Of a stretch of 64,000 bases of DNA, positions 55,867 through 62,079 are shown piece by piece. The notes beneath the pieces were generated by a model. The model saw only the letters and a program-made list of their open reading frames with translations, was not told the origin of the DNA and did no database searches. A program made the translations under genes and the position numbers. Source of the stretch: Rhizobiaceae bacterium (GTDB lineage Bacteria > Pseudomonadota > Alphaproteobacteria > Rhizobiales > Rhizobiaceae); the NCBI GenBank assembly GCA_029233925.1, contig JARGOX010000013.1, positions 48,056 to 112,055 on the forward strand. Reading direction: 5' to 3'. The stretch's first letter is position 1. Each line of letters begins with the position of its first letter.

Positions 55867-56967
55867 TCAATCGAGCTTGCTGTAGACTTCGTCCCAAAGG
55901 GCCTGTGCAAAGGCTTCACGATCGTGGCCGGTCCTGGCAATGATGCCCTGCCATTTTTCCAGCGCCGTGTTGAAGGCGTCGATCTGTTCGGCGTAGTTCT
56001 CCACCCCGATGTCGGCGGCGTAGTCGGCGATCAGTTCCCTGTCAGCGTCGGAAGGCGCCAGGGCTGCAACGAGGCTTTCGTCTCCCTGGTGAAACTTCAC
56101 GCCGGCAGCTTCGGCATTTTCGCGTGACTTTTCGGCCAGTGCATTCTGCCCAATCATCATGTCCGCCACGCCGTAGGTGATTTCCTTGAGCAGCAGTTTT
56201 TTGTGGTCGGCTTCGAGATCATTCCAGGTTTCAGTGCTGAGTGCCATGAGCGACATGGCGCGTACAGTGCCCAAGGGCGCTTCCGTGACGTTTGTCACAA
56301 TGCCCTGAAGGCCGTATGACGAATACCAGTCCATCGACGCGAGTACGCAATCGAGCTGGTTGCGTTGCAGCCCCTCGGCCATTTCGGGCGAGGGAATGTT
56401 CGACGGGATGGCGTTGAGGCGGCCCAAACGGGGGCCCATGATGCCCGTTGTCTTGACGCGCAGACCCTTAAGATCGGCGAGCGAAGCAACCGGTGTCGTG
56501 CATTGCAGCACAAATGGTGTGGTTGAATAGGCTCCGAATAACCGCGCTCCGGCATTGGCGTACTCCTTGACGCAATCGGGGCAATTGAGCAGCATGGCCT
56601 CATTGACTGCGCCTGCAATGGCGAAAGGGTCGGTGCCATACATTGCCATATTGGCAAAAATCACGGCTGACGGAATATCCGACGGATACCATTGCGGAAT
56701 CACCATCCCGGCATCAGCCACCCCGTCTTCTATTCCACCCAGAATGGCGCGTGCGCCAAGCAGTTGGCCGAGCGGAAAGGTGGTCCAGTTCATCTTGCCG
56801 TCCGTGGCTTTGGCGATGCGTTCGAACATCGGCTCCAGCGCGACGCTGAGCGAGGGATGTTGCGTTCCGACAAAGGCGGCGTATCTGTAATCCTTGGCAA
56901 GGCCCGGGCCTGCAGCAAGCCCCATGGCGATCGTCGCGGCGGTGATCGTCTTTATAAATTTACGCAT
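55867..56967 (-). CDS. dctP: TRAP transporter substrate-binding protein (DctP family)
   Basis: Signal peptide; FPLGQLLG, GIEDGVAD, LADLKGLRVK, EMAEGLQRNQLDC; RBS AGGAG. Confidence 0.87.
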   Translation of the reverse strand: MRKFIKTITAATIAMGLAAGPGLAKDYRYAAFVGTQHPSLSVALEPMFERIAKATDGKMNWTTFPLGQLLGARAILGGIEDGVADAGMVIPQWYPSDIPSAVIFANMAMYGTDPFAIAGAVNEAMLLNCPDCVKEYANAGARLFGAYSTTPFVLQCTTPVASLADLKGLRVKTTGIMGPRLGRLNAIPSNIPSPEMAEGLQRNQLDCVLASMDWYSSYGLQGIVTNVTEAPLGTVRAMSLMALSTETWNDLEADHKKLLLKEITYGVADMMIGQNALAEKSRENAEAAGVKFHQGDESLVAALAPSDADRELIADYAADIGVENYAEQIDAFNTALEKWQGIIARTGHDREAFAQALWDEVYSKLD

Positions 56968-56989
56968 GATTGTCCTCCTGTATGATGCG

Positions 56990-58300
56990 TCAGTTTCCAA
57001 CCTGGTTGGGCAGGAATAGTGAAATTTCCGGAAATCCGATGAGAAGGCCCATGATGATCAATTCGCACAGCAGGAACCACGTCACGCCGTGGAATATCTC
57101 GCCCAGCGCAATGCGGTCTCCGAGCGCACTTTTTACCACATAGACATTCAGTCCCACGGGCGGGGTCAGCAGACCGATTTCAATGTATTTGACAACGATG
57201 ACCCCAAGCCAGATCGGGTCGGCCCCAACGGAATGGAAGACCGGAAGGATCACCGGTAGACTGATCAGCATGACACCCAGTGGATCCAGGAACATGCCCA
57301 GAACCAGGAACAACAGCGAGGCGGCAAGCACCAGTATCAAATAATTGTCGCTGAAATCGCTGAAGGTGCGCGCAAGGGTCGATGATATTCCTGTCAGGGC
57401 AAGGAATTTTGTGAAAATGATCGCGCCCATGGCAATAAAGAATATGCGTGCCGTGCTTGTCAGGGTTTCGATGACGCTATCGCTGATCAACGCCCAATTC
57501 AGCCCACCGATAAAGGCTGCGGCAACCAAAGACAGAAGCACACCAAGGGCGGCTGCCTCGGTGGCGGTGACCACGCCCCCGTAGATGCCGCCAAGAACAC
57601 CGAAAAAGATGACGGGCAAGGGCCAGATCGGAATCAGGCTTTCCCATCTTTCACGACGCCCGGGCCGGATGTCGAGGCCGGGCGCCAGCGCAGGATTGGC
57701 GATACAGCGCAGCATGATCATCGCGACATAGACAAACAGGGTGAGCAATCCCGGCAGGATGCCGGCAATCAGCATCTTGGCAATCGAGACCTCGGCAAAA
57801 ATTGCGTAGAGGATCATCAGCAGGCTGGGCGGGATCAACGCGCCGAGTGTGCCGGCGCTGGCAACGCAGCCGGCGGCAAGTTTGCGGTCATAGCCTGCGC
57901 GCAGCATTTCGGGCACCGAAAGCCGCGCCATGGCAGCAGCGGTCGCCATGCTGGAGCCGGACATTGCGGCAAAGCCCGCCGCCGCGACATTGGTCGCAAC
58001 GGCCAGGCCACCTGGCATGGTTCCCATCCACAGGCGGGCCGCGTGGTAGATCTTGGTCGCCAGTCCGGAGCGCTGGATGATGCTGCCCATCAACAAAAAC
58101 AGCGGGATGGCCGACAGGGACCAGCTTGCAGTGAACTCGAAAGGTGTCGAATCGAGGATGCTGACGGTTGGGCGCAGGCCGATCTGAAAATAGATTCCGG
58201 CAGCACCGACAAGCCCCAGCGCAACACCCACAGGAAACTCCAGCGCAACCAGCACAAGAACGAGCGCGAAGCCACCGGCGCCGATCCACAGACCATCCAT
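56990..58300 (-). CDS. dctM: TRAP transporter large permease (DctM)
   Basis: AIPLFLLMG, SGSSMATA, GTLGALIPPS, TATEAA, GLLTPPVGLN; start taken at MDGLWIG. Confidence 0.92.
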   Translation of the reverse strand: MDGLWIGAGGFALVLVLVALEFPVGVALGLVGAAGIYFQIGLRPTVSILDSTPFEFTASWSLSAIPLFLLMGSIIQRSGLATKIYHAARLWMGTMPGGLAVATNVAAAGFAAMSGSSMATAAAMARLSVPEMLRAGYDRKLAAGCVASAGTLGALIPPSLLMILYAIFAEVSIAKMLIAGILPGLLTLFVYVAMIMLRCIANPALAPGLDIRPGRRERWESLIPIWPLPVIFFGVLGGIYGGVVTATEAAALGVLLSLVAAAFIGGLNWALISDSVIETLTSTARIFFIAMGAIIFTKFLALTGISSTLARTFSDFSDNYLILVLAASLLFLVLGMFLDPLGVMLISLPVILPVFHSVGADPIWLGVIVVKYIEIGLLTPPVGLNVYVVKSALGDRIALGEIFHGVTWFLLCELIIMGLLIGFPEISLFLPNQVGN

Positions 58301-58301
58301 G

Positions 58302-58823
58302 TCAAATGCCCTCCATTGAAGACGTGTACGTCGGTGAAGACTTTTGCGGGGGCTTTTCGTTCTGCAAAAAGCGCAGGGCATTGCGCAGGGCGAGCAAGGT
58401 GAAGGCCAAGGCAACGGCCCAGCGTCCGGGCCAGACGAGGAAGTATCCCGTCGAAGTTTCCCAGATTTCGCCGCGCAGGGTCTTGTCCCACGCCTCTTCA
58501 AAAGACAGCCATGCCACCAGACCAAGACAAATGGCGATGACGGCAAAGCTGATGCGCCGTATCGCGTGGCGGATGTGATCAGGAAGCATGGAGGTGAAAA
58601 GATCGACGCTGATATGGCCCTCAGACTTTTCCGCATAGGGCAGCGCGCAGAATACGACTGCGACCATGTACCAGGCCGAAACGAAGGTAATGGTCTGCAA
58701 TTGCGACACAACACCAAGAAGTCGAAGAACAACCTCCAGCGTGACATGCCCCAGCATCAGAACCAGCCCGGCAATCGCAACGGCCAACAAGGCCCTGTCC
58801 AGGACCGTCAGGATCCTTGCCAT
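58302..58823 (-). CDS. dctQ: TRAP transporter small permease (DctQ)
   Basis: Four TM segments, GHISVDLF, WPGRW; RBS GGAGAGG. Confidence 0.88.
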   Translation of the reverse strand: MARILTVLDRALLAVAIAGLVLMLGHVTLEVVLRLLGVVSQLQTITFVSAWYMVAVVFCALPYAEKSEGHISVDLFTSMLPDHIRHAIRRISFAVIAICLGLVAWLSFEEAWDKTLRGEIWETSTGYFLVWPGRWAVALAFTLLALRNALRFLQNEKPPQKSSPTYTSSMEGI

Positions 58824-58884
58824 TTATTTCCCTCTCCCAGTTGCCAATCAACCGAACAACGGTCTTCCGTCATTTCGCGTCTCA

Positions 58885-58913
58885 TTGACTATAATTGCCG
58901 TAATAATTATTAT
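58885..58913 (+). promoter_or_regulatory. Sigma70-type promoter for the marR gene
   Basis: TTGACT-N17-TATTAT, near consensus; the -10 lies inside the 18-bp box. Confidence 0.55.
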
Positions 58914-58918
58914 AATAA
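58901..58918. promoter_or_regulatory. Candidate operator, copy 1: TAATAATTATTATAATAA
   Basis: Identical to 60993-61010; contains the overlapping 12-bp palindromes TAATAATTATTA and TTATTATAATAA. Confidence 0.75.
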
Positions 58919-58925
58919 ATTGATA

Positions 58926-58956
58926 AAATCAAGCTGACAGTGTATCAGCTTGATTT
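58926..58956. repeat. Perfect 12-bp inverted repeat in the dctQ-marR divergent region
   Basis: AAATCAAGCTGA-CAGTGTA-TCAGCTTGATTT. Confidence 0.8.
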
Positions 58957-59026
58957 CGCCCTTCCTTGGCTCCATCCTGGTTCCCCGGGGACGACGCCAA
59001 TCAACATCACCCAGAAGACGGTTGAT

Positions 59027-59545
59027 ATGCCTGCAGAAACCACCGAGATACCGAAGCCGGAACCCGAATGGATGCCCTCTGCAACGCTCGGCGAGGCCTT
59101 GCCGGTGCGGCTTTTGCGCGCGCGTGAAGCGATCATGCAATTCTACAGGCCGCTGTTCCAGGCGACCGGCATCACGGAGCGGCAGTGGCGCGTTCTGCGC
59201 AATCTCTTTGACGCACCATTTCTTGAACCGTCCGAACTCGCCGTTCGTGCTTTCATGCAGCCGCCGAACGTATCGCGGGTGCTGAACGAACTTTCCGCCT
59301 TGAATTACGTCACCCGTGTTGCCTCCGGCAAAGACCAACGCCGGGCGCGCATTGCCCTGACGGAAACCGGACGCGCAGCCACCGTGCGCATAGGGCGCCA
59401 TATCGAAGCGCGCACCACGGAGCTTTTGAAGACACCGGAAGCGGCGGAATTTGCCCGGCTCGGCGAACTGCTGGAGATGGTCATCGACATGCCGCAGAAA
59501 TATCCGCGTCTGACCGTTGCTACACATCAGCCGCCCGGCCCATAG
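59027..59545 (+). CDS. MarR family regulator, HpaR-like
   Basis: LLRAREAIMQFYRP...ITERQWRVLR...DQRRARIALTETG pattern matches the HpaR subfamily as I recall it. Confidence 0.88.
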   Translation: MPAETTEIPKPEPEWMPSATLGEALPVRLLRAREAIMQFYRPLFQATGITERQWRVLRNLFDAPFLEPSELAVRAFMQPPNVSRVLNELSALNYVTRVASGKDQRRARIALTETGRAATVRIGRHIEARTTELLKTPEAAEFARLGELLEMVIDMPQKYPRLTVATHQPPGP

Positions 59546-60972
59546 GGGGACGTCCACTCCAACTCTTTCGGTCCGATCTTTTTCTCGATGCATCGCCCGG
59601 CGGCATAACCGGCAATTTCTCCGGTCAGGGTGGTCCAGGGGAAGTTCCGCATGACCATGAAGATCGTCTCATAGCTGAAAGACAGGGACGCGCCGGCCAG
59701 CAGCAGGTTGTCGATCTTTTTTGGCAGGAAGCAGCGGTAGGGCACTTCGAATTCATAGGGCGTATAGGTGTCCCAGAAAAACAGCTTTTTCATCGGATGG
59801 GTCACGGCATCGCGAAAGCGGTGGCCATTGCGCGCATCGTCTATGGTGAAGACATGTTCACCGATCGGATGGCGCCCGTCGCGCACGCCGACATAACGGC
59901 CAATACTGCCGATGCGCGCATTGTCGAAACCGGGGACATATTTGCGAAGGAACCGCGCCTCCGCATCAACATAGCTGCGCAGCAGGCGGGTTGCGGTTGA
60001 ATTGTCTTCGCCACTTTCGTCCATATGCAGATTCAGTTCATAGGGCACATTTTGCCACAGACAGTAGCTCCCGTCGGCTGACATGGGGCTCATATCAAGG
60101 GTCGGGTGGCCGATATACATGCTGGCATAAATATGCGCGCCCTGCATCGTTGGCCGATAGAGTCCTTCAGGGATATCGCCTGCAGCACGGGCCTCGGCGA
60201 TGACTTTTTGCAGCAAGGGGTCGTCGGCCTGTTGTTGATGGCGCACAAGAGATGGCAGATCAACGCCATGCATCGTCCAAAGCAGCCCGCCTGGCACAGG
60301 CCGGTGAACGCCATCCCATTGTGCTGTGTCGGGCTGGCCACCACCACCGGAGATATACGGCACGCCCGCACTGGCAGCGAGCTGGCCGGTGCCCGATCCC
60401 TCAATGAAGATCCGACCGGTGATGGCGAAGCGACCGCTGTTGTTTTCCACGACGATCGCACGGATGTGTCCGTCGCCGTTGCCCGGATCGACAATGCAGT
60501 CAACAAAGCGCGTGTCATAGAGGGCGAAGACGCCCGCCTCGTCCAGCATTTGGGACATGACGCTTCCCGATCCCTCCGGATTGAAGGAGAGACGGATAAA
60601 ATCGTCGCCGGGGCTTTTCTTGCGTTCATAGTGCGACAGGGGGTTGCCAGCCCAATCGGCATGAGAGGTGTTGTCGGCGCGGTATATGTAACCGTGGGCG
60701 TCAAACCGCTCCATCAGCTCGGTGTGAATGCCGCCAATGCCTTCCGATGCATGGCCCTGAAGACCCGACGTGTGAACGCCTCCCGGCGCGTCGAGCTTTT
60801 CAACCACAATGACGCTGGCACCCATCCGGGCGGACTTGAGCGCTGCTGCAAAGCCGGACGGTCCGGCGCCGACAACAACCACGTCGGCATCATAGGATAC
60901 GGGCACGTCAGCGGCCATCGGGATAATGGATTTCTCTCCAGTGGCTAGCTGATTTTCGTCTGACATTGGCAT
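59527..60972 (-). CDS. FAD-dependent oxidoreductase (FAD_oxidored/PF12831-like), function unknown
   Basis: DVVVVGAGPSGFAAALKSARMG, GGVHTSG, FIEGSGTG, GVRDGRH, VPYRCFLPKKIDNLLLAG, GEIAG; RBS GGGAGA. Confidence 0.87.
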   Translation of the reverse strand: MPMSDENQLATGEKSIIPMAADVPVSYDADVVVVGAGPSGFAAALKSARMGASVIVVEKLDAPGGVHTSGLQGHASEGIGGIHTELMERFDAHGYIYRADNTSHADWAGNPLSHYERKKSPGDDFIRLSFNPEGSGSVMSQMLDEAGVFALYDTRFVDCIVDPGNGDGHIRAIVVENNSGRFAITGRIFIEGSGTGQLAASAGVPYISGGGGQPDTAQWDGVHRPVPGGLLWTMHGVDLPSLVRHQQQADDPLLQKVIAEARAAGDIPEGLYRPTMQGAHIYASMYIGHPTLDMSPMSADGSYCLWQNVPYELNLHMDESGEDNSTATRLLRSYVDAEARFLRKYVPGFDNARIGSIGRYVGVRDGRHPIGEHVFTIDDARNGHRFRDAVTHPMKKLFFWDTYTPYEFEVPYRCFLPKKIDNLLLAGASLSFSYETIFMVMRNFPWTTLTGEIAGYAAGRCIEKKIGPKELEWTSPYGPGG

Positions 60973-60992
60973 ATTCTCCCCGCTGCTTTCTC

Positions 60993-61010
60993 TAATAATT
61001 ATTATAATAA
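60993..61010. promoter_or_regulatory. Candidate operator, copy 2: TAATAATTATTATAATAA
   Basis: Identical 18-mer 20 bp upstream of the oxidoreductase start. Confidence 0.75.
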
Positions 61011-61302
61011 GTAATATTGCGCAAGCCCAATCGACAACTATCTTGCAAGGCCGTTGGCATCTGCTGGGAATAGGGGCTTGATCAGCGTTGTGGCGGTGGT
61101 GGAAAACGCTGCCGCTGCCGGGGATATCTGCCCCGGTTCGCCAGCCCGCTTTGCCGGACACTGTCTGCGTTGGCCCGTGGAAAAACAAAGGGGCCGGGCA
61201 ATCAAGCCTCAGCTCTGTTGATTTGTGCGGGAATTGATGAGGGGATTATCGCGGCCATGAAGCGTATGGCCGCCTTCCATTGTCGTATGGGCCGGCTGCG
61301 CT

Positions 61303-62079
61303 CTAAAAGCTGTCCTTGCGACGGCGGATCTCGGCGAAGACATCACTGTCTTCTGCGTCCGGCATATGGAGGAGCGCCCGGATTTTCGGATCGTCTGCCC
61401 GCAGAAAGGGGTTGGTTTCCTTCTCGATGCCGATGGTGGTCGGCAATGTCGGTTTGCCAGCCGCCCGCAACGCGTGAATTTCCTCGGCTCGTGCCATCAG
61501 CTTTTCATTTTCCGGGTCAATCGTCACGGCGAAGCGCGCATTGGCTTCGGTATATTCATGGCCGCAATAGACGACCGTCTCATCGGGCAATGCCGCCAGT
61601 TTCTGCAGGGACTGGTGCATCTGCAGGGGGGTGCCCTCGAAGATGCGTCCGCAACCCAGCGCAAACAACGTATCTGCCGTAAAGGCGGTGGCCGCCTCGG
61701 GCATGTAGTAGCAGATATGACCCAATGTATGGCCGGGCGTCTCGATCACTTCAACAGTATGATTTGCGAATTCGAAGGTCTGGCCACCGACCACTGTTTC
61801 GTCGACTTCGGGAATTTTGTCAGCTTCTTTTTGCGGGGCGATGACCTTCGCGGAAAATCTGGATTTCAGTGCAGCGATGCCTTCGACATGATCAAGATGA
61901 TGGTGGGTGACCAGAATGTGGCTCAAGGACCAGCCGGTGCGCTTCAGCGCCGAAAGGATGGCCGCTTCCTCCGGTGCGTCAATCGACGCGGTTGCGCCCG
62001 TTGCCGGGTCGTGTATCAAAACCCCGAAATTGTCACTGCGGCACGGAAACTGTTCTATCTGCAAACGGGTCAAATTCAT
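61303..62079 (-). CDS. gloB: Hydroxyacylglutathione hydrolase (glyoxalase II)
   Basis: DNFGVL, THHHLDH, TPGHT, DTLFALGCGR, CGHEYT, EKETNPFLR. Confidence 0.94.
   Translation of the reverse strand: MNLTRLQIEQFPCRSDNFGVLIHDPATGATASIDAPEEAAILSALKRTGWSLSHILVTHHHLDHVEGIAALKSRFSAKVIAPQKEADKIPEVDETVVGGQTFEFANHTVEVIETPGHTLGHICYYMPEAATAFTADTLFALGCGRIFEGTPLQMHQSLQKLAALPDETVVYCGHEYTEANARFAVTIDPENEKLMARAEEIHALRAAGKPTLPTTIGIEKETNPFLRADDPKIRALLHMPDAEDSDVFAEIRRRKDSF

Follow-up and report, generated by a model that had tools for sequence, protein, structure and literature searches.

Why should two identical boxes composed of A and T only occur in a bacterial genome with G+C content of 55.6%, one between the divergent genes dctQ and marR and the other ahead of a gene for a flavin adenine dinucleotide (FAD)-dependent oxidoreductase? 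Both lie in the window, the whole 64,000-nt stretch of Rhizobiaceae DNA analysed here (C36:48056-112055), which is a part of an assembly of 6,115,417 bp in 43 contigs. A sequence-only reading had taken the 18-bp box as the operator of the local MarR regulator, with a regulon of three units: the dctQMP operon for a tripartite ATP-independent periplasmic (TRAP) transporter, marR itself, and the oxidoreductase gene. This proposal is supported by conservation of both sites in diverged loci, by absence of the box where this MarR is missing, and by uniqueness of the box in the genome, and binding of MarR is what we infer from these. With a probability of about 0.78, the box is the operator of the adjacent HpaR-like MarR repressor.

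The exact 18-mer TAATAATTATTATAATAA was found on the plus strand at 58901-58918 (box 1, Q site) and at 60993-61010 (box 2, F site), just where it had been read. Since dctQMP and the oxidoreductase gene are both minus-strand units, each box faces its target in the same direction. Distances from box 1 are 77 bp to the dctQ start (58823) and 108 bp to the marR ATG (59027); box 2 stops 20 bp short of the oxidoreductase ATG (60972), a distance that had been given correctly. No match to the box, with up to three mismatches allowed, was found in 100 dinucleotide-preserving shuffles of the window. In the whole 6.1-Mb assembly, the two local copies are the only sites with at most one mismatch, and C21:218291 is the sole independent site within three mismatches; A/T-only runs of at least 18 nt number 24 in this genome. 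Both boxes scored 32.5 bits with an 18-column position weight matrix (next independent site 19.0 bits), and 56.2 and 51.4 bits with a 43-column model comprising the -35, the box, and the downstream flank (next site 20.8 bits). The genome scan gave no copies besides the local two, and the box is not a motif common genome-wide. When a degenerate box pattern was searched in six other MarR-bearing genomes, the local sites alone exceeded the reversed-pattern control. A single weak match was obtained in the scans for further members of the regulon; it is in L025 and adjoins the gene for a DctP-like protein with 23% identity. As there are no further sites in its own genome and, apart from their local sites, the six others are at control level, the scans support a predicted regulon restricted to the local cassette, with two operators and three transcription units (dctQMP, marR, and oxidoreductase). 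No Rfam RNA family was found in 58700-61400.

The box was followed in related loci from a Rhizobiaceae metagenome-assembled genome (MAG) with 97% identical MarR (L006), a Pseudomonadota MAG (L007), Mesobacterium pallidum (L008), a Sneathiellaceae MAG (L009), Marinibaculum pumilum (L010), Cognatishimia sp. (L011), Oceanicola sp. (L012), Vannielia sp. (L047), and metagenome contigs (L013-L015). The convergent pair of marR and oxidoreductase genes is present in all of them except L011, and dctQMP is divergent from marR in the window, L006, L007, L012, L047, L013, and L015. A box upstream of the oxidoreductase gene was identified in eight independent lineages (L007, L008, L009, L010, L012, L013, L015, and L047), in which MarR is 50-75% identical, and a second box is in the dctQ-marR intergenic region wherever dctQMP is adjacent (L007, L012, L013, L015, and L047). 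When the intergenic regions were aligned with MAFFT, nothing but the box block proved to be conserved. The consensus of the Q site is TTkCCkTAATAATTATTATAATAAnTTGAnAAnATCAAGC and that of the F site (G/T)ATAATTATTATAAT(C/A)A, with AATAA as the invariant core of both. The two sites are identical only in this lineage and the near-identical L006; elsewhere the Q type and the F type differ.

The regulator belongs to the MarR family according to PF12802 (43.5 bits, cutoff 27) and PF01047 (37.4 bits, cutoff 24.6). Its best NCBIfam match is TIGR02337 (HpaR) with 100.5 bits, under the cutoff of 121.2, followed by NF053777 (Saro_0803) with 43 bits, and its best PDB relatives are 2fbi, 7el2 (HpaR, E = 4e-15), and 5aip (E = 1e-14). 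As the score is under the cutoff and there is no hpa operon at the locus, this MarR is classified as HpaR-like and not as an HpaR equivalog. The clade is small, with 16 clustered proteins of 54-95% identity among 5.8 billion searched. The recognition helix M-x-x-PN-x-SRVL-x-E is invariant in the clade alignment, which parallels the invariant core of the box. In Cognatishimia (L011), a MarR that is 49% identical and has the same recognition helix is coded convergently with an operon for an aldo-keto reductase and an alpha/beta-hydrolase; ahead of this operon, in its promoter region, is AGATAATTATCAATATAA (17.2 bits).

The oxidoreductase family is far larger than the MarR clade, with 486 matches (the 120 listed are 64-97% identical), and this allows the box to be compared in enzyme loci with and without the regulator. 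A class-wide search of 401 genomes for the oxidoreductase, with four candidates scored per genome in the first look, found it in its own genome alone. Six orthologues without the clade MarR (66-77% identical) were taken by exact-protein look-up. Their genes are adjacent to those for LysR, LigB, and GST (L048), IclR, Rieske/LigXa_C, and TRAP (L049), cytochrome c and Amidohydro_2 (L050), SDR and HpaB (L051), TauD and Rieske/LigXa_C (L052), or an ABC transporter and an unrelated, 38%-identical MarR (L053). No site above 13 bits was found in the 11-13 kb of these six loci, and none is upstream of the oxidoreductase gene (0/6), while all eight independent lineages with the clade MarR have the box (8/8, 18.5-32.5 bits). 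The difference corresponds to a Fisher estimate of about 3e-4 for lineages that are not fully independent. As the box is present in 8/8 lineages of the MarR clade and in 0/6 orthologues with another or no regulator, the comparison supports that it travels with the MarR and not with the enzyme.

Locus L053 is worth a separate note. At its positions 1189-1400, an HpaR-like MarR (38% identical, helix LLMPSLLRIL) is upstream of an operon of ABC transporter and oxidoreductase genes, and a candidate AT-rich palindrome for it is TAACAT-N9-ATGTTA. Here the same enzyme family seems to have another regulator-operator pair, parallel to the one in the window.

The box consists of three hexamers, TAATAA-TTATTA-TAATAA, that is H-H'-H, and the two overlapping perfect 12-bp palindromes described earlier are indeed there, TAATAATTATTA at box positions 1-12 and TTATTATAATAA at 7-18. 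Over the 11 non-redundant sites, the two 12-bp dyads have 53/66 and 51/66 complementary pairs, the centre of the whole 18-mer has 38/66, and off-register centres have about 20/66. With dyads retained at 11 sites and the box always in the same register, past the -35-like TTG and before the gene, the data are consistent with an operator of the MarR family. One dyad begins 6 bp after the other, roughly half a turn of the helix, and two MarR dimers may sit on opposite faces of the DNA; alternatively, one dimer may bind in either of two registers. Binding of either kind would, if true, be an unusual operator logic for the MarR family. A single 18-bp dyad centred on the box pairs at only 6/9 positions in this genome, not a significant number where all letters are A or T. 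F-type sites of other lineages (GATTATAATAATTATC) gain a symmetric G..C about the centre of the 18-mer, however, and one dimer may be centred there.

All 11 sites align gap-free on the minus strand, with an invariant TTG 12 nt upstream of the box. In the window, this TTG opens the -35-like hexamers of the proposed promoters of dctQMP, TTGATT-N17-TAATTA (-10 at 58909-58904) or N18-AATTAT, and of the oxidoreductase gene (Table 1). The box probably covers the spacer and the -10 of both sigma-70-type promoters, TTGnnn-N17-TAATTA or N18-AATTAT, and this position on the two minus-strand promoters suggests repression by occlusion. The dctQ and oxidoreductase promoters would be the direct conserved targets of the box.

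For marR itself, the promoter TTGACT-N17-TATTAT proposed in the sequence-only reading is indeed there and matches the consensus better than anything else in the region. Its -35, TTGACT, is not conserved in any diverged orthologue, only in the near-identical L006, and was rejected as a conserved marR -35; the promoter may be lineage-specific. The arrangement TTGAnA...ATCAAGC...GTATC, that is TTGAnA-N17-TATCnn, is kept in all five lineages with a dctQ-marR intergenic region and is likelier to be the marR promoter, judged by this conservation. The candidate marR -35 and the dctQ -35 jointly form a conserved inverted repeat, TTGAT-N3-ATCAA. As a protein on box 1 would touch either candidate marR promoter, autoregulation of marR via box 1 is plausible.

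A perfect 12-bp inverted repeat, AAATCAAGCTGA-N7-TCAGCTTGATTT, follows box 1 closely, at 58926-58956, and extends over the candidate marR promoter or 5' leader. Its RNA has a folding free energy of -16.5 kcal/mol (z = -3.4). Outside the window, the hairpin was seen only in the near-identical L006; the remaining lineages have retained ATCAAGC and GTATC but no hairpin.

Several observations weigh against the box as a MarR operator or complicate it. The co-occurrence sample is small and phylogenetically not fully independent. Autoregulation cannot be a general trait of the clade, as L008-L010 lack a box ahead of marR. In the site alignment, the centres between columns 43 and 44, 46 and 47, and 49 and 50 are all partly symmetric, so that more than one dyad, and more than one number of dimers, would fit. 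The -10 hexamers (TAATTA/AATTAT) are imperfect and the TTG is only 12 nt from TATAAT, which makes the promoter assignment uncertain. Finally, TATAAT is present on both strands of the box, at a core-promoter position, and the conservation could partly reflect promoter function. Carried to its end, this last point would reduce the box chiefly to a strong core-promoter module (spacer and -10), shared by the sites and carried along with the cassette, and MarR would bind elsewhere or nowhere. The fixed register to the upstream TTG at every site is in line with such a module, and so is box 2, over which a promoter must lie because the start codon of the oxidoreductase gene is only 20 bp away. Spacers of sigma-70 promoters are, however, normally not conserved base for base across families, two perfect 12-bp dyads kept in orthologues are not demanded by a promoter, and the six orthologues without this MarR also need promoters, yet nothing similar is found there. 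We consider the module improbable as the main role of the box.

Still less probable is that another protein binds the box on a sporadic cassette, either a nucleoid-associated silencer (in Alphaproteobacteria MucR/Ros-type or H-NS-like) or another transcription factor. AT-rich tracts are typical targets of nucleoid-associated silencers, and the tract is all A/T within a 56% GC genome. The cassette is sporadic as well, with the MarR in 1 of 16 other same-genus genomes and in one other of 60 relatives. What is conserved in hosts of different orders is, however, a specific sequence beyond AT-richness, the box tracks presence of the MarR clade exactly, and no anomaly was found in the GC composition of the locus.

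It is also very improbable that MarR, once on the box, activates any of the three promoters or regulates it in both directions. Box 1 is immediately upstream of the conserved candidate marR -35 (58920), in a position like that of class-I/II activators; at dctQ and the oxidoreductase gene, in contrast, the box is between the -35-like TTG and the start site, the classic position of a repressor. Most metabolic regulators of the MarR family are repressors. On the other side, HpaR activates the type VI secretion system T6SS4 in Yersinia from an upstream site (PMC7180172). That the two copies are functionless products of chance or recent duplication, as their identity only in this lineage and L006 and the difference of the two sites elsewhere might suggest, is effectively refuted, as none are expected by chance in the shuffles and each site is separately conserved in orthologues with its Q-type or F-type variants.

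For the box as the MarR operator, the following course is envisaged. MarR dimers on the three alternating hexamers, with their two overlapping 12-bp dyads, would block RNA polymerase at the promoters of dctQMP and the oxidoreductase gene, and at box 1 they would also abut or overlap the divergent marR promoter and cause autorepression. By analogy to characterised relatives, MarR would be released by an organic acid that the cell has imported, probably an aromatic or phenolic one, and uptake and a single flavoenzyme step would be switched on together. Such regulation would be conventional, an ordinary and well-supported repressor-operator switch, in an uncharacterised MarR clade.

Table 1. Genes, boxes, and promoter candidates of the cassette (positions in the window)
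Feature	Position	Strand	Evidence or remark
dctP	55867-57000	-	PF03480 above cutoff
dctM	56990-58300	-	PF06808 above cutoff
dctQ	58302-58823	-	PF04290 above cutoff
dctQMP TRAP transporter operon, proposed target of box 1	55867-58823	-	Pfam, NCBIfam (TIGR00786 300 bits)
Earlier-proposed marR promoter TTGACT-N17-TATTAT	58885-58913	+	-10 inside box 1; best sigma-70-like match in region, 10/12
Box 1 (Q site), TAATAATTATTATAATAA as plus strand	58901-58918	-, oriented with dctQ	Exact match; dctQ-marR divergent region; candidate MarR operator
Candidate marR promoter TTGATA-N17-TATCAG	58920-58948	+	Begins 1 bp past box 1; putative function
-35-like TTGATT, proposed dctQMP promoter	58927-58932	-	TTG invariant in 11/11 aligned sites; putative function
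marR, 172 aa, HpaR-like, proposed repressor	59027-59545	+	PF12802, PF01047
FAD-dependent oxidoreductase PF12831, 481 aa	59527-60972	-	Pfam E = 2.7e-63
Box 2 (F site), identical 18-mer	60993-61010	-	20 bp upstream of oxidoreductase start codon
-35-like TTGCGC, proposed oxidoreductase promoter	61019-61024	-	Register to box 2 as at box 1; TTG columns invariant, also in MAFFT; putative function

The gene identities read before (TRAP operon, MarR, and oxidoreductase) agree with the Pfam matches to DctQ, DctM, DctP, MarR, and PF12831 FAD_oxidored, and with all three components present the transporter is of the DctPQM type. The marR and oxidoreductase genes are convergent and their 3' ends overlap by 19 bp (59527-59545). 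The identical 19-bp overlap is annotated in L012, L013, L015, and L047 and is absent in L009 and L010. If there is no terminator between the genes, induced transcription of the oxidoreductase gene would read antisense into marR and could add a feedback layer. The dctQ-marR intergenic region is bracketed, near both ribosome-binding sites, by inverted repeats ATCAACCG/CGGTTGAT and CAACGGTCTTC/GAAGACGGTTG (58843-58867 and 58996-59026), and a direct repeat GCCAATCAAC is at 58843 and 58996.

Cassettes of other lineages include also a TAXI-TRAP transporter and sometimes genes for AcnX (aconitase X family), both of which are absent from this genome. The interval 61011-61302, about 290 bp between box 2 and a gloB-like gene (61303-62079), has no convincing open reading frame. 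The corresponding interval of L007, L013, and L015 is followed by a divergent gene for the TAXI-TRAP binding protein, and 61011-61302 may be the place where such a gene was lost.

The oxidoreductase matches PF12831 with 215 bits over residues 30-472 and has an N-terminal GxGxxG FAD-binding fold. Its AlphaFold2 model (mean predicted local distance difference test, pLDDT, 82) is a flavoprotein fold with two dinucleotide-binding domains. The best PDB structures in the fold search are generic GR2-type flavoproteins and group A monooxygenases with a template-modelling score of only about 0.43, and no specific function can be transferred for that reason. The PDB sequence search gave matches to the N-terminal Rossmann motif alone and no close solved homologue, and the NCBIfam search gave no match near its cutoff. 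Orthologues of the enzyme adjoin genes for LigB, Rieske/LigXa_C, HpaB, TauD, Amidohydro_2, and molybdenum hydroxylase. These gene contexts point weakly to aromatic or lignin-derived acids as the substrate of the cassette, which would fit an HpaR-like sensor. The best PDB relatives of DctP are 4nap and 4pgn (E = 1e-17), which may be binders of indole acids or aromatic compounds.

The TRAP transporter, one flavoenzyme, and the regulator may constitute a self-contained module for uptake and oxidation of an aromatic or phenolic acid. That this module and the hexamer-array mode of binding both hold, as two linked readings, is possible, although we regard it as doubtful. The regulator-operator pair of such a module could, if true, serve as a new biosensor. 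As regulator, operator, transporter, and enzyme are one compact cassette, the ligand that releases MarR would also name the substrate of the transporter and the enzyme. With the box, this HpaR-like MarR clade, itself uncharacterised, gains a precise predicted cis-element and a closed predicted regulon. It goes together with a highly conserved flavoenzyme family, at least 64% identical among the matches listed, which is distributed in Alpha-, Beta-, and Gammaproteobacteria in contexts of aromatic or lignin type.

Among known systems, HpaR of E. coli W and Yersinia pseudotuberculosis binds two AT-rich TTAA-N4-TTAA palindromes of about 15 bp, one of them over the -10, and an aromatic acid induces the hpa-meta operon under its control (PMC7180172). 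HpaR is the closest curated family of the MarR described here, and both systems have two AT-rich palindromic sites, with overlap of the -10 predicted here. Unlike HpaR, which controls hpaGEDFHI, this MarR has a TRAP transporter and a single PF12831 flavoenzyme as its predicted targets, the box is 18 bp long with three alternating hexamers of a different sequence, and the two sites serve separate transcription units 2.1 kb apart that flank the regulator gene. No hpa genes are in the locus, and HpaB adjoins the oxidoreductase only in the unrelated locus L051.

Saro_0803 of Novosphingobium aromaticivorans occupies 22 bp of A/T-rich DNA at the nov1 -10, from which the phenolic resveratrol releases it (PMC10046596). 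It is likewise an alphaproteobacterial MarR with an A/T-rich site at the -10 of a single enzyme gene, a position that is predicted here. The similarity of the two regulators is low, however, the Saro_0803 operator is GCAATA-N6-TATTGC, its regulon has no known transporter, and its enzyme is a stilbene dioxygenase.

NadR of Neisseria meningitidis is an HpaR-like MarR repressor that responds to 4-hydroxyphenylacetate. Structure 5aip, listed above, makes it one of the top structural relatives of this MarR by sequence. NadR, however, acts in a pathogen, where it controls transporters and the gene for an adhesin. In the paradigm of E. coli MarR and marO, a winged-helix dimer binds palindromes that overlap the promoter, the genes are divergent, and autorepression is lifted by small phenolics. 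The cassette resembles it in the palindromic sites overlapping promoter elements and in the divergent gene arrangement, as known here from sequence. It differs from marO in the purely A/T operator and in the second operator, which belongs to a convergent downstream gene whose 3' end overlaps marR.

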